DNA from: Bryobacteraceae bacterium
GTDB taxonomy: Bacteria > Acidobacteriota > Terriglobia > Bryobacterales > Bryobacteraceae
Direction: 5' to 3'
Assembly: GCA_049582585.1 (NCBI GenBank)
Contig: JBAUUG010000446.1
Span: forward strand, 1 to 51,521
Length of the DNA: 51,521 nucleotides
Part shown: in pieces, positions 5,382-50,731 of the stretch
How the letters are laid out: the number at the start of each line of letters is the position of its first letter
Numbering within the stretch: the stretch's first letter is position 1
Program-made: the position numbers and the translations under genes
The notes under the pieces: model-generated
What the model was told of the DNA's origin: nothing
What the model saw: only the letters and a program-made list of their open reading frames with translations
Database searches by the model: none

Positions 5382-5442
5382 CTCTCATTCGATGCTGCAA
5401 CACCCCAGAAGTGCTAGAAAGATTGCGGGTCCACTAGGGTAA

Positions 5443-17379: not shown

Positions 17380-17913
17380 CTAGTTTGAGTTGTTGGTGAA
17401 CGCGCGTCCATAGTCGTTCGTAGGATCGCGGTACATGGTATGAAGATGCATGGTCGGATCGCCGCCCACGCCTTGAGGCGAAAACTCGATGATTAGCTTC
17501 GGCCCCTGAATGCGGTAGTACGAGGCGCCGTTTCTCCCGGGCTCGTGCGTAGTCGGTCCACTCCAGGCAAAATAGGTCTCATCCAGGCCAGCCTTGATCT
17601 CTGCCATTCGCGGTTTCGCATAGGCATCGTTGACAATGCCCGCCCACTCCGAGATCACATCGAGCAGCATGGTCCGCTGTTTCTCGTTCATCGCAGCCGC
17701 CTTCAGACCTTCAGGCTGAATGGTCTCCCCCGCGTGTCCCGGGCCGGCCACTAAGTCGTCTATGCGGTAGTTCAGAATGGCCTGCTTCCGTTGGCTCTCA
17801 TCCAGCGCATTCAGTAGCGCGAATGCCTTGTCATTCTCCTCAGCCAGTACCCTCACGGTTTTGCCATTGGAAGTGTAGACCGCGGGCTGAGCACCAGTCA
17901 GAGTAGGTGTCAT
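17380..17913 (-). pseudogene. DUF3500-family protein, C-terminal half only (N-terminally truncated copy)
   Basis: From MTPTLTGAQPAVYTSNGKTV onward it aligns with the second half of the full-length paralogue at 49590-50731, ending HLHTMYRDPTNDYG. The 87 codons upstream in the listed ORF (to 18174) have no similarity. The ATG at 17913 has an AAAGGA SD, so a shortened product is possible. Confidence 0.6.
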
Positions 17914-27317: not shown

Positions 27318-27659
27318 ATGTCCGGCCCGGCCCAGCTTCTTCCAGGAACTCTCGACCTCCTTATTCTGAAGGCAGTCTCTCTCGGTCCTCTTCATGGCTA
27401 CGGCGTTCTTTTACGCATCGGGCAAATCTCCCAGCAAGCCCTCCTCATTGAGCAGGGAGCGCTTTATCCCGCATTGTTCCGTCTGGTGCGCCAGGGGCTG
27501 CTGAAGGCGAGCTGGGGAGTCTCGGATAACAATCGCCGCGCCAAGTTTTATGAGCTCACCCCCGCGGGCCGCAAGCGTTTTCGTGAAGAGACCGAAGGCT
27601 GGAATCGCTTAGCGACCGCCATGACCACTGCCCTTGCCGCACAACCGGAGGAAGCATGA
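27318..27659 (+). CDS. PadR-family transcriptional regulator (acidobacterial PadR subtype)
   Basis: LLPGTLDLLILKAVSLGPLHGYGVLLRI...IEQGALYPALFRLVRQGLL..WGVSDNNRRAKFYELTPAGRKRF is the winged-helix PadR signature. Its stop overlaps the next start (ATGA). Confidence 0.9.
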   Translation: MSGPAQLLPGTLDLLILKAVSLGPLHGYGVLLRIGQISQQALLIEQGALYPALFRLVRQGLLKASWGVSDNNRRAKFYELTPAGRKRFREETEGWNRLATAMTTALAAQPEEA

Positions 27660-30310: not shown

Positions 30311-30321
30311 ACGGAGGAAGT

Positions 30322-32973
30322 ATGAAATTCCTAACCTACCTTCGTTCCCTTGCCACCAAAGTTTTTCGTCGCTCTCAGATCGAGGACGAGATGGAGGCGG
30401 AGCTTCGCTCGCACATCCAGCACCGCGCCGACGACCTTCGACGTGCTGGCCTGAATCCTGCCGAGGCGCAACGCCGCGCGCGCATCGAGTTTGGCGGCTA
30501 TGTGCGGTTCAAAGAAGAAAGCCACGAAGCGATGGGCGGCATCTTCTTTGAAACTCTCGTGCAGGATGTGCGGCTCGCTCTTCGCGTATTGCGAAAGTCT
30601 CCCGGTTTTGCCATCGCCGCCGTTTTAACGCTCGCCTTGGCGATTGGCGCGAACGCCCTCGTCTTCAGTGTGCTGAACGCGCTGATCCTGCGCCCGCTGA
30701 ATGTGCCTCAGGCGCAGACCCTCTACGGACTCGAGCGCAGAACCGACCTTGGGTCCGAGTCGTATCCAAATTATCTCGATGTGCGCGATCGCAACCGCAG
30801 CTTTGATGGGTTGGCGGCTTTCACCATTTCTGCGGCGGCCCTCAACACGGGCAAAAATCCATCCCGCGCCTGGATCGAGGAAGCCAGCGGGAACTACTTC
30901 GACGTCTTAGGAATTCAGCCGTATCTTGGCCGTTTCTTCCACTCGTCCGATGAGCATGGCCCCAACAGCGCTCCGTATATCGTGCTCACGTACGCCTACT
31001 GGCACACCTTTTTTCAAGATGATCGCGGCGTGGTAGGCCGCACGGTGCAGCTAAACAAACATCCCTTCACTATCCTCGGTGTAGCTCCGCCTGAGTTCCA
31101 CGGGACCATTGTGTTTTTCTTTCCCGATTTCTTTGTGCCGATGGTGAACCAGGAGCAGGTGGCCGGGGTGAATCTCCTGAACGCGCGCGGACCTCGTTGG
31201 GTTTTCGAGGTGCTGGGACATCTGAAGGCGGGAGTCACTCCCCGGCAGGCGGTTGCCGATCTGAACTCGGTCGGCGCCTACCTGGAAAAGACCTATCCCC
31301 AAGATGACGGCAAGATGACCTTTACTTTAGTTCGTCCAAGTCTCTACGGCGATGCCCTTGGCCCTCCGGTACAGGCCTTTCTTACCGGGTTGATGCTGCT
31401 GGCAGGGTTAATTCTATTGGCCGCATGCGCCAACCTGGGCAGCCTGTTTGCCGCGCGCGCCGCTGACCGAGCGCGCGAGGTTGCTCTGCGGCTTGCGCTT
31501 GGATCGAGCCGCAGCCGAATTCTGCGGGCACTATTTACCGAAGCCATGCTGATTTCACTCCTCGGAGGCGCTGCCGGACTCTGGGGCAGCATCGTGCTGT
31601 TGGGCGGCCTCAGCACCTGGCATCCATTCTCCAGATTTCCCTTCAGCCTGGCTGTGAATCCCGACGCTCACCTTTATGAAGTAGCTTTACTGTTGACCTT
31701 AGCGAGTGGGTTTCTCTTTGGCGCAGTCCCCGTGAGGCAGGTCCTTCGCGCCGATCCCTACCAAATCGTCAAGTCGGGATCAAGAAGCACGGCCGGGCGG
31801 CGCTTTACGGTCCGGGACCTGTTGCTCGCCGTGCAAATTGCCATCTGCGCCGTGCTCGTCACTTCTTCGTTCGTTGCCGTGCGTGGGCTGGCGCGGTCGC
31901 TGCACGGCAATTTCGGTTTTGAACCGCGGAATGTCATGCTGATGAACACTGTTCTGGATATGGCGGGCTACCGCGGCGATGCTGTCCCTGCGATGCAAAA
32001 GCGCATGATCGAAGGCATGGAAGCGATTCCAGGTGTCCAGTCTGTGGGACTGATTGATCGAACACCCCTATACGAGGTCTCGAACGTATCGAACGTCTTT
32101 GCCGGCGAAACGACCGATCTAAGGCCATCGAATGCCGCCTTTGTGGCCGTGGCATACAGCATCTCTCCCGAATACTTTCACGCAGCGCGAACCGCCTTGC
32201 TGTCTGGAAGGCCTTTTACATGGCACGACGATAAAAACGCGCCACGCGTGGCAGTCATCAACCAGGAATTTGCGCGAAAAATCTTCGGCTCCGTCCGCGC
32301 CGCAATGGGCAGGCACTTCAAAATGCCGGATGGAGCGCGCATACAAGTGGTGGGTGTTGCGGAAGACGGAAAATATAACAGCCTCACCGGAGATCTGCAG
32401 CCGGCGATGTTTCTCCCCATCCTCCAATCGCCATCGAGTGAGACATCGCTGGTCGTACGCTCCACGCGCGATCCGCGGCAACTCTTCGACGCTATGAAAA
32501 GTAAACTGCGGGACTTGGATTCGGGGCTGCCTCCTTTCATTGAAACGTGGAGCCGAGCATTGGACACAAATCTGTTCCCTTCGCGCATGGCGGCGATTTC
32601 GCTGGGTGTGCTGGGCATCATGGGCGCCATGCTGTCGATCACCGGCATCTTTGGAATGGCGGCGTATTCTGTCAGCCGCCGGCTGAAGGAATTGGGAATC
32701 CGGATGGCCCTCGGCGCGCAACGAACCGAAGTATTACAAGCGGCCTTGAGCCGCGCCTTTAAACTGCTGGCTTTCGGCTCGGCGGCAGGATTGGTCTTAG
32801 GAATTCTCGCAAGCCGGGTGCTGGCTTTTATCGTGTATCAGGCAACTCCGCGCGACCCCCTGGTATTGGCCGGTGTCGTTCTGGCTATGGCGTTGCTCGG
32901 CTTGCTGGCCACGTGGATTCCAGCGCAGCGTGCGCTATCGCTTGATCCTTTGACACTGCTCCGAGAGGAGTGA
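30322..32973 (+). CDS. ADOP-family duplicated permease, paralogue 2
   Basis: ATG at 30322 preceded by GGAGGAAG. Same architecture as paralogue 1. The listed GTG at 30307 overlaps the upstream stop. Confidence 0.9.
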   Translation: MKFLTYLRSLATKVFRRSQIEDEMEAELRSHIQHRADDLRRAGLNPAEAQRRARIEFGGYVRFKEESHEAMGGIFFETLVQDVRLALRVLRKSPGFAIAAVLTLALAIGANALVFSVLNALILRPLNVPQAQTLYGLERRTDLGSESYPNYLDVRDRNRSFDGLAAFTISAAALNTGKNPSRAWIEEASGNYFDVLGIQPYLGRFFHSSDEHGPNSAPYIVLTYAYWHTFFQDDRGVVGRTVQLNKHPFTILGVAPPEFHGTIVFFFPDFFVPMVNQEQVAGVNLLNARGPRWVFEVLGHLKAGVTPRQAVADLNSVGAYLEKTYPQDDGKMTFTLVRPSLYGDALGPPVQAFLTGLMLLAGLILLAACANLGSLFAARAADRAREVALRLALGSSRSRILRALFTEAMLISLLGGAAGLWGSIVLLGGLSTWHPFSRFPFSLAVNPDAHLYEVALLLTLASGFLFGAVPVRQVLRADPYQIVKSGSRSTAGRRFTVRDLLLAVQIAICAVLVTSSFVAVRGLARSLHGNFGFEPRNVMLMNTVLDMAGYRGDAVPAMQKRMIEGMEAIPGVQSVGLIDRTPLYEVSNVSNVFAGETTDLRPSNAAFVAVAYSISPEYFHAARTALLSGRPFTWHDDKNAPRVAVINQEFARKIFGSVRAAMGRHFKMPDGARIQVVGVAEDGKYNSLTGDLQPAMFLPILQSPSSETSLVVRSTRDPRQLFDAMKSKLRDLDSGLPPFIETWSRALDTNLFPSRMAAISLGVLGIMGAMLSITGIFGMAAYSVSRRLKELGIRMALGAQRTEVLQAALSRAFKLLAFGSAAGLVLGILASRVLAFIVYQATPRDPLVLAGVVLAMALLGLLATWIPAQRALSLDPLTLLREE

Positions 32974-32975
32974 AT

Positions 32976-35630
32976 ATGAAATTCCTGGCTTACGTCCGTT
33001 CCCTTGCCGCTAAGGTTTTTCATCGCTCCGAGGTCGAGGACGACATGGAAGAGGAGCTTCGCTCGCACATCCAGCACCGCGCCGACGACCTTCGACGTGC
33101 TGGCCTGAATCCTGCCGAGGCGCAACTCCGCGCGCGCATCGAGTTTGGCGGCTATGTGCGGTTCAAAGAAGAAAGCCACGAAGCGATGGGCGGCATCTTC
33201 TTTGAAACTCTTGTGCAGGATGCGCGGCTCGCTCTCCGCGTGTTGCGCAAATCTCCCGGTTTCGCCATCGTCGCCGTTTTAACGCTCGCCTTGGCGATTG
33301 GCGCGAACGCCCTCGTCTTCAGTGTGCTGAACGCGCTGATCCTGCGGCCGCTGGATGTGCCACAGCCGGAACGTCTCTACAACATCGAGCACCGGAGCGG
33401 TACGCTGGCGCTATCGTATCCCGACTATCTCGATCTACGCGACCGCAATCGCAGCTTTGACGGCCTGGCAGCCTACAACAGCTTTCAGGCAGGATTGGAT
33501 ACGGGCGGCGACCCCGGGCGCGTCTTTGTCGATGAAGTGACTGCGAACTACTTCGATGTGCTTGGGATACAGCCGTATCTGGGCCGGTTCATTCACCCAT
33601 CCGATGAGCACGGTCCGAACAGCGCTCCGTATATCGTCCTCAATTATGCGTATTGGCGCACCCATTTTCAGGACGATCGCGGCGTGATTGGCCGCACTGT
33701 TCAACTCAACAAGCATCCGTTCACCATCATCGGTGTTGCGCCGCCCGCGTTCCACGGGCCGGTGTTGTTTTTCTCCCAGGATTTCTTCGTGCCGATTGTA
33801 AACCAGGAGCAGGTGGAAGGGCAGAATAACCTGACCGCTCGCGAGAGCCGATCGCTTTTCATGACCGTCGGCCGTCTGAGGACCGGAGTCACTCCGCAAC
33901 AGGCGATTGGCGATCTGAACTCGATCGGCTCCTATCTGGAACAGACCTATCCCAAATCCGATGCCAAAACGAGGTTTGGGTTAGCTCGTCCATTTCTTTT
34001 TGACGACATGGCTGCTTCGCCAACTCGGGCATTTCTCACGGCATTGATGCTGCTGGCCGGGTTAATTCTGCTGGCAGCCTGTGCCAACTTGGGCAGCCTG
34101 TTTGCGGCACGGGCTGCTGACCGAACGCGTGATATTGCTATGCGCCTCGCGCTTGGATCGAGCCGCAACCGCGTTCTGCGAGGTCTCTTTACCGAAGCTC
34201 TGCTGATATCTCTCATGGGAGGCGCTCTCGGACTATGGGGCAGCACAGTGCTGTTAAGCGGATTAAGCGTGTGGCAGCCAATCCCAAAAATTCCCTTCCA
34301 TATGCCTGTGTACCCGGATGCACATGTCTATGCAGTAGCCCTGCTGTTGACATTGATAAGCGGGCTCCTCTTTGGCGCGGTCCCCGTGAGACAAGTACTT
34401 CACACGGATCCCTATCAGATCGTCAAGTCGGGATCCGGAAGGACGGGCGGATGGCGGATCACTGTCCGAGACCTGTTGCTGGTGGTGCAAATTGCGATCT
34501 GTGCCGTGCTGATCACCTCTTCCATGGTTGCCCTGCGCGGATACGTGCGCTCGCTCAACGGCAATTTCGGTTTCGAGCCGCGGAACGTGATGCTGATAGA
34601 TACGGCTCTGACTATGGGAGGCTACCGTAGCGACCGGGTGCCTGCTATGCAAAAGCGCATGATGGAAGCCGTCGAGACCATTCCAGGCGTAACGTCGGTG
34701 GGACTTGCCGATCGCACGCCGCTCAATGGGAGCATGCGGTGGTCGAGTGTGTTTGCCGGCGACGCGACGGATCTGAGCCCGGCGAATGCCGTGGCTGACG
34801 TCCCGACCTACAGCGTCTCACCCGGCTACTTCCGCGCAGCCGGCACAGCTCTGCTGTCGGGAAGGGGCTTCACATGGCACGACGATCAAAACGCGCCGCG
34901 AGTTGCGGTGATCAATCAGGGGTTTGCCCGCACAATCTTTGGTTCAGTAGTAACGGACATAACGGGCAGGTATTACAAGATACAAGACGGAACCCGCGTA
35001 CAAGTAGTGGGAATCGCGGAAGACGGAAAATATCAGCGCATCGGCGAAGATCCCGAGCCGGCGATGTTCTTCCCCATCTTGCAATCGCCATCGAGTTCGA
35101 CGACCCTGTTGGCGCGTTCGAACCTCGATCTGCAACAACTAGCGACAGCTATGCGGAGTAAACTGCGGGACCTGGACTCTGGGCTGCCTTCGCTCATCCA
35201 ACCTTGGAACAAAGAACTGGACCTCGCTTTGTTTGCTCCGCGAATGGCGACGATCTCCCTCGGCGTGATGGGCATGATGGGCGCGATGCTGTCCATAACC
35301 GGCATTTTCGGGATAGCAGCATACTCGGTCAGCAGGCGGCTGAAAGAGTTAGGAATTCGTATGGCCCTCGGCGCGCAACGCAGCGAAGTGCTACAGGCAG
35401 CATTGGGACGCGCCTTCAAACTGCTTGCTTTTGGTTCGGCAGCAGGGCTGCTCTTCGGAATTCTGGCGAGCCGGGTGCTGGCTTTCATCGTGTATCAGGC
35501 GACTCCACGCGATCCTCTCGTATTGGCCGGCGTTGTTCTGGCCATGGCATTACTCGGTTTGCTGGCCACGTGGATACCCGCCCGACGCGCGCTGTCGCTG
35601 GATGCTCAAACACTGCTGCGCGAAGAGTGA
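32976..35630 (+). CDS. ADOP-family duplicated permease, paralogue 3
   Basis: ATG at 32976 preceded by GAGAGGAG. Same architecture. The 5' 300 nt are nearly identical to paralogue 2. Confidence 0.9.
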   Translation: MKFLAYVRSLAAKVFHRSEVEDDMEEELRSHIQHRADDLRRAGLNPAEAQLRARIEFGGYVRFKEESHEAMGGIFFETLVQDARLALRVLRKSPGFAIVAVLTLALAIGANALVFSVLNALILRPLDVPQPERLYNIEHRSGTLALSYPDYLDLRDRNRSFDGLAAYNSFQAGLDTGGDPGRVFVDEVTANYFDVLGIQPYLGRFIHPSDEHGPNSAPYIVLNYAYWRTHFQDDRGVIGRTVQLNKHPFTIIGVAPPAFHGPVLFFSQDFFVPIVNQEQVEGQNNLTARESRSLFMTVGRLRTGVTPQQAIGDLNSIGSYLEQTYPKSDAKTRFGLARPFLFDDMAASPTRAFLTALMLLAGLILLAACANLGSLFAARAADRTRDIAMRLALGSSRNRVLRGLFTEALLISLMGGALGLWGSTVLLSGLSVWQPIPKIPFHMPVYPDAHVYAVALLLTLISGLLFGAVPVRQVLHTDPYQIVKSGSGRTGGWRITVRDLLLVVQIAICAVLITSSMVALRGYVRSLNGNFGFEPRNVMLIDTALTMGGYRSDRVPAMQKRMMEAVETIPGVTSVGLADRTPLNGSMRWSSVFAGDATDLSPANAVADVPTYSVSPGYFRAAGTALLSGRGFTWHDDQNAPRVAVINQGFARTIFGSVVTDITGRYYKIQDGTRVQVVGIAEDGKYQRIGEDPEPAMFFPILQSPSSSTTLLARSNLDLQQLATAMRSKLRDLDSGLPSLIQPWNKELDLALFAPRMATISLGVMGMMGAMLSITGIFGIAAYSVSRRLKELGIRMALGAQRSEVLQAALGRAFKLLAFGSAAGLLFGILASRVLAFIVYQATPRDPLVLAGVVLAMALLGLLATWIPARRALSLDAQTLLREE

Positions 35631-38492: not shown

Positions 38493-39600
38493 AAGCCGAT
38501 TCGGTTCGCGTGACCGGCCGATAAGCTGTGTCCCGCTCCAGAGGTTGCCGTCCGGCTTCGCGGATCAGTGCCAGCAAATCCTGGCGGCGGAGATGTTGAG
38601 CCGTGGTCGCCCCCGCATCGTGGTAAATCTTTTCTTCCACCACGGTTCCATCTATATCGTTAGCGCCGAATCGCTGCGCAATTTGCGCCACGCCGGGAGT
38701 CATCATGATCCAGTACGCCTTGATATGAGGAATGTTATCCAGCATCAATCGAGATATGGCGATTTGCTTCAGATCGTTGAAACCGGTTGTCGGCGGCAGA
38801 TGAGCCAGCGCGGTGTTCTGAGGATGAAACGCAAGCGGAATAAACGTGACGAATCCATTTGTCTCATCCTGTAAAGATCGAAGTCGGACCAGATGATCGG
38901 ACAAGTCTTCCGCGGTTTCCAGGTGCCCATAGAGCATCGTGCAGTTACTCTTGAATCCGATTTCATGCGCGATGCGCGCGGTTTCCAGCCATTGATCGCC
39001 ATCGATCTTGTGATCGCAGATGATCCGGCGAACACGCTCTGAAAAGATCTCTGCGCCGCCTCCCGGCATCGAGTCAATCCCCGCCGTCTTCAGCCGCTCG
39101 AGGGTGTCGCGAAGCGAGATTTTCGCCCGCTTCGCCAAATAGGCGACCTCGACCATGGTGAACGCCTTCAGGTGCACGCTGGGATAACGCTCCTTCAAGC
39201 CCGAGATCATCTCGCAGAACCAATCCAGCGTCAGTTCCGGATGCAAGCCGCCGACGATGTGAAACTCGGTCACAGCTTCGGCGTATCCTTTTCCAGCAAC
39301 CTCCCATACCTGCTCGAGCGACATGGTGTATGCGTGCGGATCTTTCGCTTTCTTGCCGAACGCGCAAAGCCGGCAACTTGCCACGCACACGTCAGTCGGG
39401 TTGATATGCCGGTTGACATTGAAATAAGTAACGTCGCCGTGCAGCCGCTCGCGCACCAGATTGGCCATGTAGCCGAGCGCCAGAATGTCGGAGCTGCGAA
39501 ACATAGTCACGCCGTCTTCGTAGCTCAGACGCTTGCCCGATTCCACTTTTTCGAAAATGGGGTTGAGTGAGCGGTCCTCGATCCTGGGGTAGGAGATCAT
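38476..39600 (-). CDS. Radical-SAM menaquinone (futalosine pathway) enzyme, MqnE/MqnC family (probably aminofutalosine synthase MqnE)
   Basis: Start at MISYPRIEDRS (39600), 1 nt after the upstream stop. YFNVNRHINPTDVCVASCRLCAF (CxxxCxxC cluster), GGLHPELTLDWF, GGGAEIF, NCTMLYGHLET and GFVTFIPLAFHP. Confidence 0.75.
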   Translation of the reverse strand: MISYPRIEDRSLNPIFEKVESGKRLSYEDGVTMFRSSDILALGYMANLVRERLHGDVTYFNVNRHINPTDVCVASCRLCAFGKKAKDPHAYTMSLEQVWEVAGKGYAEAVTEFHIVGGLHPELTLDWFCEMISGLKERYPSVHLKAFTMVEVAYLAKRAKISLRDTLERLKTAGIDSMPGGGAEIFSERVRRIICDHKIDGDQWLETARIAHEIGFKSNCTMLYGHLETAEDLSDHLVRLRSLQDETNGFVTFIPLAFHPQNTALAHLPPTTGFNDLKQIAISRLMLDNIPHIKAYWIMMTPGVAQIAQRFGANDIDGTVVEEKIYHDAGATTAQHLRRQDLLALIREAGRQPLERDTAYRPVTRTESAFTVLV

Positions 39601-42571: not shown

Positions 42572-42940
42572 TTAGCGGATATCAAATAGAAAGGCTAATC
42601 CGAGTTCGATTCCGCCCATTGCCGTGTCGGTCATTTTGCCCATTTTAGGTTGTTCCAATCTGCTCGGATCTAAGACCCGTATGTGATCAGTAAGGGCCAC
42701 GCTGTTGCTCATTGGCCGCGAGCAAGACACATCCTTGATCATGTGTGTCATTGGGATAAGTATTCTGTAAGCGCTCGCCTTGTGGACCTTAGTGGTGAGT
42801 GGAACACCGACAACGTTGAACCCCAGTTTATTAATCGCGTCCCTAGAAACGATCACATAAGGACGGCTTTTCTTTTGCTCGGACCCTTGTATGTCGAGAT
42901 CTTTAGCGAATACCCAAAAGATCTCACCGTACTTAAGCAT
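42572..42940 (-). CDS. PemK/MazF-family endoribonuclease toxin
   Basis: GEIFWVFAKDLDIQGSEQKKSRPYVIVSRDAIN...VVGVPLTTK.....YRILIP....SVALTDHIRVLDPSRL matches the GdI..v.....GsEq...RP.lVvS / vvPlTs / Qir.iD..RL pattern. The ATG at 42940 overlaps the upstream stop (ATGCTTAA). Confidence 0.85.
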   Translation of the reverse strand: MLKYGEIFWVFAKDLDIQGSEQKKSRPYVIVSRDAINKLGFNVVGVPLTTKVHKASAYRILIPMTHMIKDVSCSRPMSNSVALTDHIRVLDPSRLEQPKMGKMTDTAMGGIELGLAFLFDIR

Positions 42941-43718
42941 CAAGCAGTGTTGCAGTGTCCATGTCTTTCATGGATGAATCGAGCAGTTCTTGGTCTTCCT
43001 CGTCCCATTCAAACGGCTGGATAGTGACTTCTTCTTGGGGAGATCTAAAATTAAGCCCCTGCCGAGCATACCCATACGCATTCACTGCGGCTCTCAGGCC
43101 GTCAATGATTTCGGGCAGCACTTGAAGTTGAATTGATTTATCATGCCGAATGCCTACTAACAGACAATCGAGATGAAACTGCGCCCATGTTGCATTAACG
43201 GCGAACTTGGTGGCTATCTCTTGGTCTTGAGATCTTAGATCTGGGGCAACATTGCCAGAAGCCGCTATCGTTGCGATTATTCTGCTTGTGCGCCGAAGCG
43301 TCCAAACAGTGAACATTGCTTGGTCCTTAGCAGCCGATCCGAATCGGGCTAGACCATGTTCTCGGAATTCTGCTTCAAGTTCACAAAAACATTCACGCAA
43401 AACAGTCTCAATAACTGGCCCCGCAACCATCCTTTGGATCAAGCGTGCGAAAGACGTTACCGCAATCGCATACTGCTCAAAGACTACACTTCTCACTGCG
43501 GTGAAATCCTTCTGGTTTTGTGCTGCGATAGCCCGCAGTAGCAGTCCATCAACGAACGAGCTTATTCCCTTGAGGATCTCCTCTGCTGAGGGAGACAACT
43601 CCCCCTTCGAGCGGCGCTGCGAAGGAAGGCCCACTAAGGCTAGAAGGTCATCTAATCCCGGAGGTTTTAAGCTTAGAACCCCGATATCTTGCTCGGGCAA
43701 AACAATAGCTTCGTTCAT
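42933..43718 (-). CDS. Hypothetical 261-aa protein with an acidic C-terminal tail, in the antitoxin position of the MazF operon
   Basis: Uninterrupted ORF translationally coupled to the toxin gene. Mostly helical-looking sequence. C-terminus FEWDEEDQELLDSSMKDMD. No AbrB/RHH/HTH motif recognised. Confidence 0.65.
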   Translation of the reverse strand: MNEAIVLPEQDIGVLSLKPPGLDDLLALVGLPSQRRSKGELSPSAEEILKGISSFVDGLLLRAIAAQNQKDFTAVRSVVFEQYAIAVTSFARLIQRMVAGPVIETVLRECFCELEAEFREHGLARFGSAAKDQAMFTVWTLRRTSRIIATIAASGNVAPDLRSQDQEIATKFAVNATWAQFHLDCLLVGIRHDKSIQLQVLPEIIDGLRAAVNAYGYARQGLNFRSPQEEVTIQPFEWDEEDQELLDSSMKDMDTATLLDA

Positions 43719-43724
43719 GGTAGT

Positions 43725-43913
43725 TTAAGGACGCTTCCATCTTGCGCGATTTGCCTTGAGCGCTATTGCGCGTCGCTCACCTGCATCCAGTTTTTGGGCA
43801 CGCACGGTTCCACCGATTTTGCCACCTGCGCTTGCAGCTTCTTTTCGGCGATTGGGCTGCTTTTCTTCAGTGAGTTCTTTAACGATGCGAAAAGCATTTG
43901 TGTTTAGATCCAA
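43725..43913 (-). CDS. Small basic protein (62 aa), first gene of the cargo operon
   Basis: TTG start with AAGG upstream. C-terminal GGKIGGTVRAQKLDAGERRAIALKANRARW resembles a G-G-K..RA.KL...R..IA.KAA.ARW motif I recall in short proteins next to toxin genes. Its stop lies 6 nt before the next start. Confidence 0.45.
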   Translation of the reverse strand: MDLNTNAFRIVKELTEEKQPNRRKEAASAGGKIGGTVRAQKLDAGERRAIALKANRARWKRP

Positions 43914-44091
43914 CTACATACCTTGCCTTTCGAGGACCTCTGACGATATTCATTTATACCAAGTAGGACGATCATATCCTTGATGTCGTTAGTTAAACAA
44001 GGACTACTTCTCACTTTTCTCTCAGATTGTCAAGGGTTCTAGTACCCTTCTATTTGAACAAAATGCTTGACGAAGCAAGTACTCAAGCATA

Positions 44092-44943
44092 ATGTTTAGT
44101 ATGAACCGGTTGAGCATCAAAGATCGCGTGGGGGTGGTTCGCTGTCTAGTTGATGGATGCTCAATGCGGGCGGCTTCGCGTATTACCGGAATAGCTCGAA
44201 ATACCATTGACAAGCTTCTTATCGAACTGGGGACAGCCTGCTCTGAGTATCAGGATCGCACCCTCCGCAATCTGGCATGTAAACGAATTCAGGTAGATGA
44301 GTGCTGGGCCTTCTGTTATTGCAAGCAAAAGACTGTGACTCCCGAAATTGCGGAGCGTCAGACGGCGGCTGGTGACGCATGGACCTGGGCGGCGATTGAT
44401 GCTGATACCAAACTCATTCCCTGCTGGATTATCGGTCAACGAGATGGCGTCACTGCTCGGATGTTTGTTAATGATCTTGCTTCACGTCTTGCGGATCGGG
44501 TGCAACTTACCAGCGATGGCCTAAGGGTTTACCTGGCAGCCGTAGAGCGCGCGTTCAGGGGCGACGTTGATTATGCCACCCTCGTAAAGATCTACGGCAG
44601 CGACCCCGAAGGCCAGAGGCGGTACAGCCCAGGGGAGTGCATCGGATGCGAGCGGCAACCCATCACCGGAGATCCCGACCCGCGATACATCAGCACGAGT
44701 TTTATCGAACGCGCCAATTTAACCATGCGAATGAATATGCGGCGATTCACGAGGCTGACGAACGCCTTCTCGAAGAAAATCGAGAACCACGCCGCCGCCG
44801 TTTCATTGCACATGATGCACTACAATTTTGTGCGTGTCCACCAGACGCTCAGAACCACGCCTGCCATGGCCGCTGGCGTGACTAATCGGCTCTGGGAGAT
44901 CGAAGACATCGTGGCGCTCTTGGATCATGAGAATTCAAACTGA
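44092..44943 (+). CDS. IS1-family DDE transposase (single ORF, N-terminal HTH)
   Basis: HTH CSMRAASRITGIARNTIDKLL. VDECWAF, WAAIDADTKLI, LTSDGLRVY, and FIERANLTMRMNMRRFTRLTNAFSKKIENHAAAVSLHMMHYNF, which parallels E. coli IS1 InsB [41 protein letters not shown]. Start at 44092 or 44101. Confidence 0.85.
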   Translation: MFSMNRLSIKDRVGVVRCLVDGCSMRAASRITGIARNTIDKLLIELGTACSEYQDRTLRNLACKRIQVDECWAFCYCKQKTVTPEIAERQTAAGDAWTWAAIDADTKLIPCWIIGQRDGVTARMFVNDLASRLADRVQLTSDGLRVYLAAVERAFRGDVDYATLVKIYGSDPEGQRRYSPGECIGCERQPITGDPDPRYISTSFIERANLTMRMNMRRFTRLTNAFSKKIENHAAAVSLHMMHYNFVRVHQTLRTTPAMAAGVTNRLWEIEDIVALLDHENSN

Positions 44944-44952
44944 GCCACTACC
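44935..44952 (-). repeat. Right terminal inverted repeat (reverse complement reads GGTAGTGGCTCAGTTTGA)
   Basis: + strand TCAAACTGAGCCACTACC. It contains the transposase stop codon (44941-44943). Confidence 0.9.
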
Positions 44953-44960
44953 CAACGCTT
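44953..44960. repeat. Target-site duplication, right copy (CAACGCTT)
   Basis: Identical to 42545-42552. Confidence 0.85.
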
Positions 44961-45023
44961 AGAAATGCATTCTGGTATGGTACGCTTTCTGGCCCTTAGC
45001 GCCAGGGCCGCGATTGCTTCGAT

Positions 45024-46079
45024 ATGGAGCGGATCGAAAAAACCGTTTTTCTCAGCTATCGCCGCACCAACATTCCTTGGGCGCTTGCTATTTTCCAGAA
45101 CCTGAGACAGCACGGCTATGACGTATTTTTTGATTACAACGGTATGGCCAGTGGCGATTTCGAGCGCGTCATCCTTGGAAACATACCGGCGCGGGCACAT
45201 TTTCTCGTTCTGCTAACCCCTTCGGCGCTTGAACGTTGCAATGAGCCGGCAGATTGGTTGCGCCGCGAGATTGAGACTGCTTTGGCTACCCAGCGCAATA
45301 TCGTGCCGTTGATGCTGGAAGGGTTTGAATTCGGGGCAGCTAAAATCGCCAATCAGCTAACAGGTACGCTTGCTGCGCTCAAGCACTACGACGGAGTACG
45401 CATTCCGCCGGACTATTTCGAAGAGGCAATGGATCGCTTGCGAGTCCGGTATTTAAATATTCCATTGATTGCGGTCCTGCACCCCGCATCCTTTTCTGCA
45501 CAAGAAGCCGCTGCACAAGAGAAGGCGGCGGCTGACGCGGCTCCCGCAGTTCAAGAGGAGGAGTTAACTGCCCAGCAATGGTTCGAGCGAGGATTTGCTG
45601 CGGTCGACCTTGATGAAAAATTGCGCTTCTACAACGAGGCGATCCGGCTGAAGCCGGACTATTCCGAGGCCTTCAACAACCGGGGCAATGCACGAAAGGC
45701 CAAAGGCGACCTCGAGGGAGCGATGAAGGATTACAACGAGACGATCCGGCTGAAGCCGGACTATTCAGAGGCCTTCAACAACCGAGGCGTTGCACGTTCT
45801 GACAAAGGCGACCTCGAGGGAGCCATGAAGGATTACAACGAGGCGATCCGGCTGAAGCCGGACTATTCAGAGGCCTTCAACAACCGGGGCAATGCACGTT
45901 ATACCAAAGGCGACCTCGAGGGAGCGATCAAGGATTACGGCGAGGCGATCCGGCTGAAGCCGGACTATGCCCTTGCCTTCAACAACCGGGGCATTGCACG
46001 AAACGCCAAAGGTGACGTCAAGGGAGCAGACGAGGATTTAAGGCAAGCGGAGCGCCTCAAAGCTGCCGCTCCGGCATAA
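45024..46079 (+). CDS. TIR-domain protein fused to TPR repeats
   Basis: N-terminus VFLSYRRTNIPWALAIFQNLRQHGYDVFFDYNGMASGDFERVI......FLVLLTPSALERCNEPADWLRREIETA is a bacterial TIR_2-type pattern with a conserved Glu. The C-terminus has four or more 34-aa TPRs (AIRLKPDYSEAFNNRGNARKAKGDLEGAMKDYNE). Confidence 0.85.
   Translation: MERIEKTVFLSYRRTNIPWALAIFQNLRQHGYDVFFDYNGMASGDFERVILGNIPARAHFLVLLTPSALERCNEPADWLRREIETALATQRNIVPLMLEGFEFGAAKIANQLTGTLAALKHYDGVRIPPDYFEEAMDRLRVRYLNIPLIAVLHPASFSAQEAAAQEKAAADAAPAVQEEELTAQQWFERGFAAVDLDEKLRFYNEAIRLKPDYSEAFNNRGNARKAKGDLEGAMKDYNETIRLKPDYSEAFNNRGVARSDKGDLEGAMKDYNEAIRLKPDYSEAFNNRGNARYTKGDLEGAIKDYGEAIRLKPDYALAFNNRGIARNAKGDVKGADEDLRQAERLKAAAPA
45639..46046 (+). 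repeat. Four tandem 102-bp coding repeats (TPR units), the first three nearly identical at nucleotide level
   Basis: Units start at 45639, 45741, 45843 and 45945 (GCGATCCGGCTGAAGCCGGACTAT...). Units 1-3 differ at only a few positions; unit 4 is more diverged. Confidence 0.9.
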
Positions 46080-46081
46080 CT

Positions 46082-46106
46082 CTCGACAAAAAGAGACATT
46101 TTGTCG
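46082..46106. terminator. Hairpin between convergent genes (9-bp stem TCGACAAAA / TTTTGTCGA, 7-nt loop)
   Basis: Read directly. Starts 3 nt after the TIR-TPR stop and is followed by a T-rich stretch (TACTTT). The stem is AT-rich, so its strength is uncertain. Confidence 0.4.
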
Positions 46107-46129
46107 ATACTTTGAAAAGCCCCTGCCTG

Positions 46130-46148
46130 TTTGCTGGAAACTCCAGCA
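46130..46148. terminator. Second hairpin (8-bp stem TTGCTGGA / TCCAGCAA, 3-nt loop)
   Basis: Read directly. Lies in the region between the TIR-TPR 3' end and the PepSY remnant. Confidence 0.3.
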
Positions 46149-46871
46149 AGACTAGGATCCATTCGAGTGCTCCCGGGCGTTTGCCAAGAGCAAATGGTCT
46201 AGCCAGCCTCGTTTTAGTGTTCGCCCAGAGCGGAGAACACTCCATAGCTAAATCCTTCGCCGTTTGAACGAGGCCAAAGCGATTGGATATTGCAGCCAGC
46301 CAGTGGCCAACACTCTTGGAGCCCAGCGGCGCTCCGAGTGACCGGTGCAATCGTTCGACTGCAGTAAAGAACTCATGCATTCTGGGCGAGCTCACTCCGA
46401 GAACGGCGCTGCTGTAAGGATCGATGTAGACGGTTTTGCCCCGGCCAAGTGAAAACTGTATGCCGTCTGAGGGTGATTGCGTACGACGATTGCGGTTGGC
46501 TGGCGGAGGTGGGCACGGCGAACTGTGTCTAACAAATCGTTCAGCGACGCTGGTTGAGGGTCTTGAGGAACGGAAACATACTCCGTATTCCGGTCTACAA
46601 AGTCCGTGATCTGCCGTTCGAACGCAAGCAGTACTCCGGTTGCGGCCATGATGAGAATGAAAACACCGGCGGTAACGCCAGCCGATAAATGGAGCCAGAA
46701 AACAGTTTTACGAAACATCGATTCCCTTAATGTGTCTTGAGGACAGCTTGAACAGCTCATCTGAAATTTGCCTGAAAAATTCACTTCGCTGTTCAAATGA
46801 GTAGGCGAATCTGCTGCAATGATTTTCAGGTGAGAGGAGGCAGCGCCGCTCAGCGAGCCGAAGGTCAACGA

Positions 46872-47546
46872 ATGATGCGCGTCCTGGTTGTTGATGACGA
46901 TCGCGAAGTAGCCGACTATGTGCAGCGGGAACTTGAGGAGGAATCCTTCAGCGTCGCCGTTGCGCATGACGGGGCCAGTGCCCTGCGTTTAGCCGAATCA
47001 TCGGCCTTCGACATTCTTGTGTTGGACGTGATGATGCCCTTTATGGATGGTCTGCAACTCACGCGCAATTTGCGCAGGCAGAACATTCTCACGCCGATAC
47101 TCTTGCTTACAGGTCGAGATGCACCGGAGGAAGTTGTGCGCGGACTTGAGGCAGGCGCGGATGACTATCTCACGAAGCCGTTTTCATTCGATGTGCTTTT
47201 GGCTCGCATCCGCGCTCGCACGCGAAGAGTCGATCAAAAAAACTCGCAACTTCGCTTTGCGGACCTGCTCCTCGATTTAGCTGAACACAAAGCCTGGCGC
47301 GGGAAGCGAGAAATGTTTTTAACGCGCACTGAATACTCCATTCTCGAATGTTTGTTGCGCGCGGCCGGCCGGGTAGTTACACGGGACCGCTTGATCGATA
47401 CCGTCTGGAACGATCGCGAGGTAAGTGCAAACAACCTCGACGTGTTCATCAAGTTCCTTCGTTCGAAAGTCGACATACCCGGTTCACCAAAGCTGATTCA
47501 CACTGAGCGGGGACTCGGATATAGTTTGCGCCAGGAAACGATTTGA
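46872..47546 (+). CDS. OmpR/PhoB-family response regulator
   Basis: MMRVLVVDDDREVADYV..ILVLDVMMPFMDGL..LLLTGR..GADDYLTKPFSFDVLLARIRA, plus a winged-helix output domain (LTRTEYSILECLL..VVTRDRLIDTVW..NNLDVFIKFLRSKVD). Start set at 46872. Confidence 0.9.
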   Translation: MMRVLVVDDDREVADYVQRELEEESFSVAVAHDGASALRLAESSAFDILVLDVMMPFMDGLQLTRNLRRQNILTPILLLTGRDAPEEVVRGLEAGADDYLTKPFSFDVLLARIRARTRRVDQKNSQLRFADLLLDLAEHKAWRGKREMFLTRTEYSILECLLRAAGRVVTRDRLIDTVWNDREVSANNLDVFIKFLRSKVDIPGSPKLIHTERGLGYSLRQETI

Positions 47547-49589: not shown

Positions 49590-50731
49590 ATGATGAAATC
49601 TTCCTCCATAAAAACAGCCTGCGGTATTGCTGCGCCGGCACTGATTTGCCTGTCGCTGATACGTGCCCAGGAGAAAACAGCAACCTCCCGAATCGTGAGC
49701 GCCGCGAACACCTTCCTTGCAACACTCGATCAGAAGCAACGGCAGACGGTGCTTTTTTCCTTCGACGACCAAGAGCAACGCAAACGCTGGTCAAATTTCC
49801 CGGTTGCAGTCGTCCCGCGTGGCGGCATCAGCCTCAAAGATATGAATAGTGCTCAGCGTTCCGCTGCCATGGCTTTGGTCGCATCGGCGCTCAGTCCGAT
49901 GGGTTTTGAAAAAGTTCAGCATATTATGGAGGGCGACGAGGTCAACAAGAATACTGACCAGGGGCCAGGCGGTAATCGAGGCCCCCGTCCGCAATTCGGT
50001 AACGGGGGACCGCCACCGGCCAGTGGCGGGCCGCCACCATTCGTTCGCGGCGATAACCGCCCGGCCTGGAATGGGCCCATATTCGGTAAAGATCTCTATT
50101 ACATCTCCATACTGGGAACGCCATCCGAAACCAATCCCTGGATGTTGCAGTTTGGTGGTCACCATCTGGCACTGAACATCACTATCGCGGGCGAACATGG
50201 CGTTCTTACACCGACTTTGACGGGTGCTCAACCTGCGCTCTATTCGATCAACTGAAAAACTGTGCGGCCTCTCGGCCAGGAGAGCGATTGGCATTCGCGT
50301 TGCTACAAGCTCTGGACGAGAATCAGCGCAAGCTAGCCATTTTGAGCTACCAGCTTGCCGATCTTGTACTCGGTCCAGGGCAGGATGGCAAGACGATTGT
50401 GCCAGAAGGACTGAAAGCTTCCGCTATGAACGAGCGGCAACGGGCCATGCTGCTCGACGTGACATCCGAATGGTCGGGAATCATTCACCAAAGCGCCGCT
50501 GCTGCCCGCATGGCCGAGATTAAGGCCGATCTTGACGAGACCTGGTTTGCCTGGAGCGGTCCGACAACGGTCACCCCCGGTAAGAACATCACGGCGTATT
50601 ACCGCATTCAGGGCCCGCATCTAGTTATCGAATATGCGCCTCAGGGTCTTGGCGGCGATCCCGCAATGCATGTCCACACCATGTATCGCGATCCCACGAA
50701 TGACTACGGACGGCAGTTCAGCAATCAATGA
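49590..50731 (+). pseudogene. DUF3500-family protein, full length but interrupted by an in-frame TGA (50253-50255) and a 1-nt deletion (about 50284-50288)
   Basis: ORFs 49590-50255 and 50288-50731 align end to end with the paralogue at 17380-17913: ..TLTGAQPALYSIN*KTVRPLGQESD versus ..TLTGAQPAVYTSNGKTVRVLAEEND. The frame then changes before AFALLQALDENQRK. It ends HVHTMYRDPTNDYG. Confidence 0.75.

Follow-up and report, generated by a model that had tools for sequence, protein, structure and literature searches.

The question raised by this locus is whether a bacterial gene standing next to an insertion sequence encodes a NAD+-cleaving TIR enzyme controlled by its own repeat-type sensor, and whether such a protein acts in defence. 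The locus lies in a 51,521-nucleotide stretch of DNA from a Bryobacteraceae bacterium, referred to here as the window. An initial annotation, made from the letters alone, had proposed a fusion of a TIR domain with tetratricopeptide repeats (TPRs), a candidate NADase and defence sensor of accessory origin.

The reading frame and its surroundings

The gene and its segments are as follows.

45024..46079, + strand: TIR-linker-TPR gene, complete, 351 aa plus stop with an ATG start (ORF listing)
45042..45455, + strand: TIR domain of predicted SARM1 type, aa 7–144 (Pfam TIR_2, phmmer against PDB, AF2, Foldseek)
45153..45161, + strand: BB-loop G44-D45-F46, equivalent to SARM1 G601-K602-F603 (alignment to SARM1)
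45267..45269, + strand: codon for E82, a glutamate predicted to be catalytic and corresponding to E642 of human SARM1 (SARM1 alignment; codon verified)
45456..45569, + strand: conserved linker, aa 145–182 (NIPLIAVLHPASFSAQEAAAQEKAAADAAPAVQEEELT), part of the constant "head" (homologue alignments)
45570..46070, + strand: five TPR motifs, aa 183–213, 214–247, 248–281, 282–315 and 316–349 (Pfam, AF2)
45630..46027, + strand: 102-bp tandem DNA repeat coding for the TPR array, 3.9 copies with 88% matches (Tandem Repeats Finder; also repeat family D2 of find_repeats)

The open reading frame is intact, and the 351 aa protein agrees with full-length homologues at its N-terminus (MERIEKTVF...) as well as in its C-terminal cap. 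The TIR domain (aa 7–144) is followed by the conserved linker (145–182) and five TPRs (183–349). This order, as first annotated, is confirmed by the ORF listing and by Pfam, and the motifs quoted at that time (FLSYRR, DVFFD, FLVLLTP and WLRREIE) are all found in the protein. Domain searches and the AF2 model show no central NTPase (NACHT, NB-ARC or AAA); a 38 aa linker bridges the TIR and the TPRs. No signal peptide or secretion-associated domain was found in the protein, the N-terminus of which is directly the TIR beta-A strand, and a Pfam domain search detected no RNA-binding domain.

With a GC content of 0.552 the gene is close to the window as a whole (0.567), and in GC3 (0.62) it is like its neighbours; a compositionally foreign origin is thus unsupported. 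A promoter and terminator scan of 43900–46900 showed nothing exceeding shuffled expectation. The region upstream of the gene is broken 70 nt before the ATG by an adjoining cassette. The sequence runs that contain the gene are all soil-metagenome DNA, with no RNA run among them.

The neighbouring features are listed below.

42572–42943, − strand: MazF/PemK toxin gene (Pfam PemK_toxin, E = 1.2e-17)
42933–43718, − strand: 261 aa protein of unknown function, which recurs with the IS1-like gene
43725–43913, − strand: 62 aa open reading frame, which recurs with the IS1-like gene
44048..44954, + strand: IS1-family transposase-like unit, with its gene at 44092–44943 (homology to loci L080/L081)
46057..46715, − strand: PepSY_TM gene remnant (Pfam covers profile positions 1–76 of 295)

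Between the end of the IS1-like unit and the start codon of the TIR gene lie about 70 nt. It displays 81% nucleotide identity to L080/L081 over exactly the span 44048–44954, and homology to the TIR locus L010 begins at 44958. Homologues of the 44092–44943 gene carry the name "IS1 family transposase". A search around this gene for terminal inverted repeats gave weak, unconvincing pairs only, and the boundaries of the unit are taken from the homology to L080. The IS1-like gene, the MazF/PemK toxin, the 261 aa protein and the 62 aa open reading frame form a recurrent four-gene cassette, whose gene set recurs, with homology confirmed, in L080, L083-87, L091-97 and a JGI contig. The possibility that the TIR gene is cargo of this cassette was rejected, as at least four other cassette loci show no TIR gene on the right. 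The cassette is present at none of 78 TIR-TPR loci.

On the other side, the 3′ end of the TIR-TPR gene runs up to and into the PepSY_TM remnant. Most of the PepSY_TM domain is missing, and a three-frame translation shows a frameshift near 46395, the coding sequence continuing in another frame.

The description of the gene as lying in an AT-richer stretch, bounded by an IS and a truncated PepSY gene, is correct in part. There is a low-GC block at 42572..43913 (GC 0.49), but the TIR-TPR gene itself is near the window GC. An IS1-family gene does adjoin it, but as one gene of the four-gene MazF-containing cassette, and the PepSY gene is truncated as described and frameshifted as well. As a case for an accessory origin, composition and the IS are weak where the gene itself is concerned. 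Its GC3 is neighbour-like, and the cassette is unlinked to TIR genes elsewhere.

The TIR domain and its predicted active site

The protein gives a significant match to Pfam TIR_2 (PF13676), with 52.1 bits versus a gathering cut-off of 28 (E = 1.2e-13, aa 8–102), which bears out the TIR assignment; TIR_2 is matched in 127/127 relatives scanned as well. In a phmmer search of the PDB, the TIR domains of SARM1 and TIR-1 are the best matches, with E-values of about 1e-17 over aa 7–144, and there are no other significant matches. The alignment with the SARM1 TIR has an identity of 29% and a similarity of 62%.

An earlier full-length AF2 model, made with 48 close homologues, displays a confident TPR solenoid and a TIR of low confidence (pLDDT 42–66), and because of the latter it was not used for fold searches. 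Amino acid positions 1–174 were remodelled in AF2 with a more diverse alignment, and this model (pLDDT 87.9) was used for Foldseek. Ranks 1–21 are all SARM1 or TIR-1 (E-values 3e-10 to 1e-6, TMt 0.82–0.88, rmsd 2.0–2.5 Å). Cat1, SPARTA, TIR-STING and AbTir rank after these, with E-values of 1e-4 or higher and TM of about 0.5, an approximately 100-fold drop in E-value. By the ranking of matches in sequence and in predicted fold, the TIR thus appears nearer to the SARM1 TIR than to other TIR families.

The Glu of the WLRREIE motif, E82, is aligned with SARM1 E642. Among 150 cluster representatives of the family, E82, D37 (equivalent to D594), H59 and N92 are invariant, in agreement with the conserved Glu first proposed, and Y12, R13, R14, G44 (G601), F46 (F603) and W78 (W638) vary little or not at all. 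The predicted catalytic E82 is also kept across the family alignments A1, A3, A4, A5 and A6. SARM1 H685 is not conserved, P129 being found at the equivalent place. Thus the domain carries the two sequence features by which enzymatic TIRs are recognised, a Glu at the E642 position and the BB-loop Gly, and NADase activity is predicted.

The linker, the TPR array and the family

The linker is fixed in length and conserved in sequence in more than 100 homologues, and can still be made out in relatives whose tail is not a TPR array. In the AF2 model it has a predicted helix spanning aa 157–172. The TPR array that follows is genuine, as first supposed, judged by both the Pfam matches (TPR_11, TPR_1 and TPR_2, E = 6e-35 to 6e-21) and the 102-bp DNA repeat. 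The register was fixed by the canonical W4/G8/A20/P32 positions; the first motif (aa 183–213) is degenerate and 31 aa long. The helix pairs have pLDDT values of 93–99 in AF2.

Variation within the array follows a pattern. When 549 TPR units taken from 120 homologues are compared, the scaffold hardly varies, and entropy is highest at positions 2, 12, 9, 13 and 5, which are the concave ligand-binding positions of Magliery and Regan (PMC1261162). In the three central repeats of the gene, 7 of the 13 variable nucleotide sites fall in the codons for these concave positions (P = 0.005), and the differences between copies of the 102-bp repeat cluster in the codons for positions 9, 12 and 13. The number of repeats among homologues ranges from about 3 to 12. 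Variation is thus focused on the concave ligand-binding face, and from its sequence the array looks like a sensor or specificity module. The variability of the concave face could in part represent relaxed constraint, not diversifying selection.

The family of this gene consists of 786 cluster representatives at E ≤ 1e-30, mostly acidobacterial, with copies of 62–72% identity in Proteobacteria and Chloroflexi. The TIR plus linker, or head, is 62–85% identical between phyla. The distribution of the gene over phyla points to horizontal transfer. The same head (50–83% identical) is found joined to TPR, Sel1, FGE-sulfatase, HD, second TIR, TM and coiled-coil tails. Thus the head is constant and the C-terminal tail is swappable. 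There are also tandem paralog arrays in which the heads are 67–98% identical and the TPR arrays differ, and copy number varies. Some homologues appear split, e.g. L010, L014 and L023. A tblastn search of 50,697 phage genomes gave no match to the family, IMG/VR shows a single distant relative, and in the plasmid collection the family is found only on two Paraburkholderia chromids. A blastn search of 5,426 E. coli genomes with the gene gave no match. Cultured carriers are Paraburkholderia caribensis and Caballeronia telluris. Many members are annotated merely as "tetratricopeptide repeat protein".

The gene stands alone, as the initial annotation stated. PADLOC models detect no ThsA-like or other defence component among the other 46 open reading frames of the window, and a comparison of 78 homologous loci shows nothing in common but the TIR gene itself, so that the orthologues are not syntenic core genes. 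The 146 immediate neighbours of homologues match 162 Pfam families, each found no more than 4 times. Locus L040 shows a faint local synteny, with a radical-SAM gene upstream in both places, at 2 kb in L040 and at 5 kb here, too weak for orthology. The protein itself has a best PADLOC match of 5e-5 and a ThsB1 match of E = 3e-4, all far under threshold, and its NCBIfam ThcB4 score is 35.7 bits versus a cut-off of 220. The neighbours of homologues are mostly housekeeping genes; with a threshold of 1e-10, only about 6–8 of the 146 (~5%) match any PADLOC model. Gene context is therefore a weak argument for a defence role, and the link of the family to defence islands is weak.

Proposed function and comparison with known systems

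The scheme that follows is inferred as to whether NAD+ is cleaved and into which products, how the enzyme is held in check, what triggers it, how it oligomerises and what purpose it serves in the cell. The effector would be the SARM1-type TIR, with the catalytic E82, the BB-loop residues G44 and F46 and a pocket of Y12, R13, R14, D37 and W78, and the five-TPR solenoid at the C-terminus would be the specificity or sensor module. In the resting state the TIR domains would be held apart or autoinhibited. The concave TPR groove would bind a specific peptide or protein, most plausibly of a phage or other invading element, and binding would lead to TIR–TIR assembly and a composite active site, the arrangement used by SARM1 and other enzymatic TIRs. 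NAD+ would then be cleaved and depleted, and growth would stop or the cell would die (abortive infection). Stand-alone bacterial TIRs are generally regarded as NAD+-depleting effectors, and surveys of bacterial TIR immunity routinely leave them aside (bioRxiv 10.64898/2025.12.03.692087). That the protein is a cytoplasmic, single-chain, partner-free, ligand-gated NAD+ glycohydrolase is a proposal for which we judge the chances to be about even; its role would probably be in defence.

The surroundings of the gene also suit a regulated NADase outside defence, acting in stress or starvation dormancy, programmed cell death, kin discrimination or NAD+ homeostasis, with the TPRs docking an endogenous partner. 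Housekeeping neighbours predominate, the defence-island link is weak, and the family is missing from phages and true plasmids; the strong conservation of the head across phyla is consistent with this as well, and some tails (HD, GGDEF-like, FGE-sulfatase) resemble commonplace signalling or enzymatic domains. However, the gene is non-syntenic and variable in copy number, its tandem paralogs differ in their TPR arrays, the distribution over phyla points to horizontal transfer, and ligand-face hypervariability is typical of conflict and recognition genes, so that a role outside defence appears unlikely, if by no means negligible. The TIR could instead be a signal generator, making a cADPR-isomer-type messenger that is read by an effector encoded elsewhere, as in a Thoeris-like system acting in trans. 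The signalling TIRs known so far share an operon with their effector, and here no effector-type neighbour is conserved at the 78 loci or present in the 51.5-kb window; moreover, spread across phyla as a single gene would part the TIR from an unlinked receptor. We consider this improbable, even though signal synthesis is the activity of many bacterial TIRs that share this catalytic Glu, SARM1 also makes cADPR, and there is the weak PADLOC and NCBIfam likeness to ThsB1 and ThcB4.

Three further explanations carry little weight. The domain might be a catalytically inert scaffold or adaptor, as animal TIRs mostly are, or this copy a decaying pseudogene: the H685 equivalent is lost, the cassette disrupts the upstream region, and the homologues L010, L014 and L023 look split. 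The invariance of the catalytic Glu and BB-loop Gly across the 150 representatives, and a full-length reading frame with both terminal caps intact, make this very improbable. The close likeness to a eukaryotic TIR (SARM1), in soil organisms that face protist grazing, brings to mind a secreted or injected effector of the TcpC/BtpA/HopAM1 type, directed against eukaryotic predators or hosts such as amoebae and plants. Such a use is hard to credit for a protein that opens directly with the TIR beta-A strand, with no signal peptide, secretion-associated domain or nearby secretion-system gene, in a family widespread in free-living bacteria of several phyla. Finally, NAD-RNA decapping activity is reported for several bacterial and archaeal TIR proteins (PMC10937652), and the same catalytic Glu would serve if the TIR stripped nicotinamide from NAD-capped RNAs while the TPRs targeted particular RNPs. 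TPR arrays normally bind peptides, however, no RNA-binding domain was detected in the protein and the gene context gives no pointer to RNA metabolism, and an RNA deNADding enzyme has only a slight chance of being the right description.

If the ligand-gated NAD+ glycohydrolase is the correct reading, the protein would be a minimal, partner-free SARM1-type NAD+-destroying switch, and a simple system in which a repeat domain silences a SARM1-like TIR and a ligand releases it. Through it one would also see how a repeat array changes its recognition specificity in the course of evolution. The culturable carriers P. caribensis and C. telluris make the family testable. A wider reading is held tentatively, as possible rather than likely: the family may form a very large, uncharacterised superfamily of immune-type receptors that consist of a single chain and have no NTPase, with a constant SARM1-type NADase and linker as head and a swappable tail, the TPR branch diversifying by repeat gain, loss and shuffling and hypervariable only at the ligand face. 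Soil bacteria, Acidobacteriota foremost, would then gain a rapidly evolving recognition repertoire. In annotation, thousands of "tetratricopeptide repeat protein" entries could be relabelled as predicted TIR NADases. To our knowledge, soil Acidobacteriota, in which the family is commonest, are almost unexplored for defence systems, a gap that the family would fill if the proposed mechanism holds.

Among known systems, Thoeris, named in the initial annotation, is an unsuitable analogue because there is no ThsA-type effector. ThsB is likewise a bacterial TIR with a catalytic Glu, and there is a weak HMM similarity (ThsB1, 3e-4; ThcB4, 35.7 bits), but Thoeris needs an adjacent ThsA-type effector (SIR2/SLOG, TM/Macro or similar), and none is found here or at the 78 loci. 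A better analogue is a TIR that depletes NAD on its own and has its sensor in the same chain, as in E. coli TIR-II (PMC11350192). TIR-II is one TIR plus TPR protein with anti-phage activity of the abortive-infection type, for which the TIR active site is required; it is described as the most widespread TIR system, about 30% of systems also carry an ATPase, and it occurs in Caudoviricetes too (PMC11350192). The likeness to TIR-II is one of described architecture, a TIR and TPRs in one stand-alone polypeptide. In contrast to TIR-II, the family here is without an ATPase, without a match in phage genomes and without a DNA-level match in the 5,426 E. coli genomes.

TIR-STING, TIR-SAVED and Cat1 also combine a sensor and a TIR NADase in one chain, and in them, as is proposed here, ligand-induced oligomerisation leads to NAD+ depletion. 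These proteins are activated through filament formation. What their sensors recognise, however, is a cyclic nucleotide supplied by a partner enzyme (CD-NTase or type III CRISPR), whereas here the sensor would be a TPR array with no partner, and the TIRs are structurally much farther away (TM about 0.5). Avs, the bacterial NLR-like STAND proteins and the fungal NLRs with TPR, ANK or WD40 sensors are likewise built with an effector at the N-terminus and, at the C-terminus, a repeat sensor that forms a superstructure. NLR-type repeats show high internal conservation, variable binding-face positions and changes in repeat number (PMC10197012), and the same pattern is seen in the TIR-TPR family. The central NTPase (NACHT, NB-ARC, AAA) of the STAND proteins is missing here, and therefore activation cannot use the STAND nucleotide-switch mechanism.

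TIR and TPR modules are also combined in BcTir/BcTpr of Bacillus cereus, a two-gene NAD+-depleting antiphage system in which TPR helix number tunes activity; BcTir is without the catalytic Glu (K37), and NADase activity resides in an N-glycosidase domain of the TPR protein (bioRxiv 10.1101/2023.05.26.542521). The protein here differs in being encoded by a single gene, in having the catalytic TIR Glu and in having no glycosidase domain. Group 6 of Toshchakov and Neuwald consists of actinobacterial proteins of >700 aa with an N-terminal TIR plus TPR, the beta-A motif R-D-F-F-V-S-Y and the BB-loop motif W-D-A-V-P-G. The present 351 aa protein, with a beta-A sequence KTVFLSYRR and a BB loop DYNGMASGDF, is outside this group.

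SARM1 and C. elegans TIR-1 are the best match among solved TIRs in both sequence and structure (E-value about 1e-17, TMt 0.82–0.88, rmsd about 2.2 Å). Identity is only 29%, a Pro stands at the place of H685, and the SS-loop region here is shorter by 3 residues. The domain order is reversed, the TIR being N-terminal, a SAM octamerisation domain is lacking, and TPRs take the place of the ARM repeats. Thus the TIR-TPR protein, bacterial and cytoplasmic, is not a SARM1 orthologue, as the ARM-SAM-SAM-TIR architecture is missing. The SARM1 TIR has been reported as nested within a bacterial clade (PMC13142454), and the family might be near the lineage that donated the animal SARM1 TIR. The catalytic Glu, the BB-loop G and F, the beta-A Y-R-R and the D594 and W638 equivalents are conserved, and in both proteins the TIR is paired with an alpha-solenoid repeat domain. 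If the wider reading of the family holds, it would be the closest working prokaryotic model of an alpha-solenoid gating a SARM1-type TIR.

The TIR-TPR gene and its TIR domain

The gene lies exactly where the initial annotation placed it and is an open reading frame of 351 amino acids with an ATG start:

45024–46079, + strand, TIR-TPR gene

The TIR assignment is borne out by Pfam, where TIR_2 (PF13676) matches amino acid positions 8–102 (E-value = 1.2e-13, 52.1 bits against a gathering cut-off of 28). The catalytic glutamate that had been proposed, E82 in WLRREIE, aligns with E642 of human SARM1 and is invariant in 150/150 of the best cluster representatives, as are E84, D37, H59, N92, F35 and L27. 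Across the family the BB-loop Gly shows little or no variation. A strong TPR signal covers approximately positions 195–345 (Pfam TPR_11, E = 6e-35; TPR_1, 3e-28; TPR_2, 6e-21), and at the DNA level this part is a 102-bp tandem repeat of 3.9 copies with 88% matches (45630–46027).

A phmmer search with positions 1–160 yields significant PDB matches only to the TIR domains of SARM1 and C. elegans TIR-1, with E-values of about 1e-17 and a span of positions 7–144, i.e. the whole domain. Human SARM1 TIR and the query share 29% identity and 62% positives over 136 residues (BLASTP).

Query TIR residues and the human SARM1 residues aligned with them (BLASTP alignment)
E82 (WLRREIE): E642, catalytic Glu
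Y12/R13/R14: Y568/R569/R570, beta-A
D37: D594
G44: G601, BB loop
F46: F603, BB loop
C72: C629
W78: W638
N92: N652
P129: at the H685 position, not conserved

In the full-length AF2 model the TIR is poor (pLDDT 42–66) and the TPR solenoid excellent (pLDDT 93–99). Positions 1–174 redone in AF2 with 44 more diverse sequences gave a pLDDT of 87.9 and a pTM of 0.85. The 21 top Foldseek PDB matches of this model are all SARM1 or TIR-1 chains (E-value 3e-10 to 1e-6, target-normalised TM 0.82–0.88, rmsd 2.0–2.5 Å); the next TIRs, those of Cat1, SPARTA, TIR-STING and AbTir, follow at E ≥ 1e-4 and a TM of about 0.5. By its PDB sequence matches and the Foldseek ranking, the domain is specifically SARM1-type in sequence and predicted fold, in agreement with the reported nesting of the SARM1 TIR in a bacterial clade (PMC13142454).

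Family spread, exchanged tails and variable TPR units

A word-indexed search with the whole protein found well over 100 proteins with TIR_2 and TPRs, 56–81% identical and 351–544 aa long, which their sources name just "tetratricopeptide repeat protein". Their first 190 residues have a fixed length, are 62–85% identical, and consist of TIR plus linker ending ...ELTAQQWFERGF. An exhaustive HMMER search of 1.84 billion cluster representatives with query positions 1–190 gave 6636 matches at E ≤ 1e-3, 3545 at E ≤ 1e-10 and 786 at E ≤ 1e-30, and a scan of one genome per species gave at least 400 relatives.

Acidobacteriota account for 66 of the 78 TIR-TPR loci fetched (Acidobacteriaceae, Terracidiphilus, Bryobacterales, Korobacteraceae and others), the remaining 12 being from Paraburkholderia, Caballeronia, Sedimenticolaceae, Arenicellales, Geminicoccaceae, Crenothrix and Anaerolineae. 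Since identities of the latter to the query (62–72%) fall within or just below the Acidobacteriota range (66–85%), the comparison points to horizontal transfer. The family was not found among 50,697 phage genomes. In the plasmid collection it is present only on two Paraburkholderia caribensis replicons of 1.9–2.0 Mb. The 2.9 million IMG/VR contigs hold one distant relative of the TIR head, the sole one on a viral contig (55-kb contig L082, 6001–6384; 37% identity over positions 8–139).

Of the best 150 cluster representatives, 127 were scanned, all 50–83% identical to the query over the head. TIR_2 is found in 127/127 and TPRs in about 29; other tails are Sel1 repeats (4), FGE-sulfatase (2), HD_5 (2) and a second TIR (5), and 56 Pfam families are seen in all. 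By sequence inspection, a TPR-like motif is missing in 109 of the 150 after the conserved linker ...LNVPLxAVLHPxSxxAQxxAxEQ.... Non-TPR tails include membrane segments, highly charged coiled coils and a GGDEF-like domain, among others, and several architectures recur independently among the best 150. The window's TIR-TPR protein thus represents a single architecture within a modular superfamily whose members retain the enzymatic head and exchange the C-terminal module.

The relatives P0246, P0288, P0321, P0328, P0380 and P0389 are tandem-TIR proteins, with another, dissimilar TIR behind the conserved TIR + linker head.

The TPR scaffold, in 549 34-residue units from 120 homologues, is close to invariant (consensus YNEAIRLKPDYADAFNNRGNARRAKGDLEGALQD). 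Shannon entropy peaks at positions 2 (3.43 bits), 12 (3.35), 9 (3.01), 13 (2.82) and 5 (2.75), coinciding with the concave positions of Magliery & Regan, who reported that 2, 5, 9, 12, 13, 33 and 34 vary most among TPRs at large and line the concave face, where ligands bind (PMC1261162). The three central repeats of the query (positions 203–304) contain 13 variable nucleotide sites. Codons 9, 12 and 13 account for seven of them, each having changed at two or three sites. Of the remaining six, four are synonymous and two are replacements, one each in codons 4 and 32. A hypergeometric test for enrichment in the concave codons as defined in the literature gives P = 0.005. Tandem paralogs are also present, four in locus L039, three in L052 and two each in L007, L057, L062 and L072, with heads 67–98% identical and differing numbers of TPR units (2 to 12), and some MAGs carry copies on separate contigs. 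Sensor domains of fungal NLRs are described as having the same pattern (PMC10197012): their repeats are near-identical, vary only on the binding face and change in number, and paralogs form arrays. The sequence variation fits a concave face that diversifies for recognition, although relaxed constraint there may also account for it.

The locus and the adjoining cassette

Open reading frames called within ±8 kb at each of the 78 loci were clustered all-against-all. Just one cluster is widely shared, that of the TIR-TPR gene, with 79 sources; among the neighbours the largest cluster spans 6 loci. The 146 immediate neighbours (peptidases, hydrolases, oxidoreductases, a DNA ligase and similar) match 162 Pfam families, each at most 4 times. 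About 6–8 of the 146 match PADLOC models at E ≤ 1e-10 (MzaA, PDC-S35, mad2/3, LmuB, AriA, AbiLi, ThsB-like TIR), and no convincing defence-component match is present in the other 46 open reading frames of the window. The gene thus stands alone, as had been proposed. Since the neighbours share no common family, it is neither a syntenic core gene, which would have counted against the initial annotation's reading, nor a member of a conserved operon.

At L010 8001–9179, L014 8001–9261 and L023 7402–9116 the gene seems split into a TIR-only open reading frame (183–197 aa) and a separate one; such cases may reflect pseudogenes with a frameshift, errors of assembly or true two-gene versions. In L040, from a Terracidiphilus MAG, the TIR-TPR protein is likewise 351 aa, and a homologue (4986–6004, 70% nt identity) of the window's radical-SAM (MqnC/CofH-like) gene at 38501–39519 lies 2 kb upstream, perhaps a faint trace of local synteny.

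The IS reported beside the gene is in part confirmed: an IS1-family unit does adjoin it, but this is probably not a plain IS, as it recurs in a four-gene set:

42572–42943, PemK/MazF toxin, divergent from the transposase-like gene
42933–43718, ~260-aa protein, divergent from the transposase-like gene
43725–43913, small open reading frame, 62–69 aa across loci, divergent from the transposase-like gene
44092–44943, IS1 family transposase-like gene, 283 aa

The unit is defined by 81% nt identity of 44048–44954 to the cassette contigs L080/L081. Because homology to TIR-TPR locus L010 starts at 44958, the unit ends on its right side ~70 nt before the TIR start codon and interrupts the native upstream region. 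No convincing pair of terminal inverted repeats was found for the unit, and the ~260-aa protein has no Pfam, NCBIfam or PADLOC match. The set is seen in at least five distinct loci (the window, L080, a JGI contig, L083–87/L092–97 and L091), and one variant occupies the same site of the chromosome in 24 contigs that come from many samples. Homology across loci holds for all four genes, the transposase-like gene (71–89% identity) being far better conserved than the toxin (30–58%) and 260-aa protein (32–48%); the small open reading frame shows 57–82%. The four genes may form a module in which the IS1-like protein has been domesticated. In its other loci the right-hand gene is not a TIR gene, and 0/78 TIR-TPR loci carry the cassette, so the adjacency is incidental.

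The AT-richer stretch is not a property of the TIR gene, whose GC is 0.552 (GC3 0.62, like its neighbours) versus 0.567 for the window. The toxin block has a GC of 0.49, and the low-GC signal belongs to the cassette. The truncated PepSY gene is present as described:

46057–46715, − strand, PepSY_TM remnant, profile positions 1–76 of 295 only

It is a pseudogene with a frame shift near 46395, overlaps the 3′ end of the TIR-TPR gene and adjoins a two-component system. The rest of the neighbourhood is ordinary (radical-SAM MqnC/CofH-like, LarB/AIRC-like, aminotransferase, OmpR-type response regulator and histidine kinase). Elsewhere in the window there are:

65–4699, + strand, giant 1544-aa open reading frame matching bacterial Ig-like (Big_3_5), InlB B-repeat-like and P-domain, with three 438-nt tandem copies at 3455–4695 (67–81% identical)
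17393–17610 and 50507–50724, 218-nt inverted repeat pair, 76% complementary, 33 kb apart
27656–35630, + strand, three tandem paralogs of 884–888 aa (MacB_PCD + FtsX-type ABC permeases), ~2.66-kb direct repeats, 67–91% identical

Predicted function and relation to known systems

Enzymatic TIRs, as established for SARM1 and bacterial TIRs, require TIR-TIR assembly via the BB loop. In sequence the query TIR shows all the hallmarks of an active enzyme of the SARM1 type, and it probably cleaves NAD+. A conserved linker connects it to a sensor-like module, which differs both among genomes and within them, and it is somewhat probable that the TPR array controls activation. With these features, the BB-loop Gly and no partner, we propose that a specific peptide or protein would bind in the TPR groove and release or nucleate TIR assembly, leading to NAD+ depletion and growth stop, with no partner gene required. 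A single-chain, ligand-gated NADase is the best-supported reading, held as a whole at about even confidence.

A role in defence against phages or other mobile elements is plausible, falling a little short of an even chance; the family is at best weakly associated with defence islands. A regulated NADase with some other role, in dormancy, cell death or kin recognition, is rather unlikely. A signalling TIR with an unlinked effector is improbable. The query is the shortest protein of its family, yet the gene is intact, because the N-terminus (MERIEKTVF...) and C-terminal cap agree with full-length homologues; an inert scaffold or pseudogene is very improbable. NAD-RNA decapping and a secreted effector against eukaryotes are just as slight in probability. 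For the ligand-gated NADase, the closest functional precedent is E. coli TIR-II, a stand-alone TIR+TPR protein whose phage protection depends on the TIR active site (PMC11350192). The likeness lies in the architecture, and by analogy the query may work in the same way. TIR-STING, TIR-SAVED and Cat1, likewise sensors fused to a TIR effector, are looser likenesses.

By sequence and predicted fold the query belongs to the TIR_2 family and the SARM1-type TIR clade. It is not a SARM1 orthologue (no ARM or SAM domains), Thoeris ThsB (no effector gene, scores far below cut-off), an Avs/STAND protein (no NTPase), a member of actinobacterial TIR-TPR group 6 of Toshchakov & Neuwald (motifs differ) or a member of the BcTir/BcTpr system. 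Stand-alone TIR-TPR proteins and SARM1-like bacterial TIRs are already described, and the query contradicts no expectation. What is new compared with these is the size and phylogenetic spread of the family, its constant-head/swappable-tail organisation and the concave-face hypervariability in a consensus-like TPR array, computational findings that merit specialist attention.
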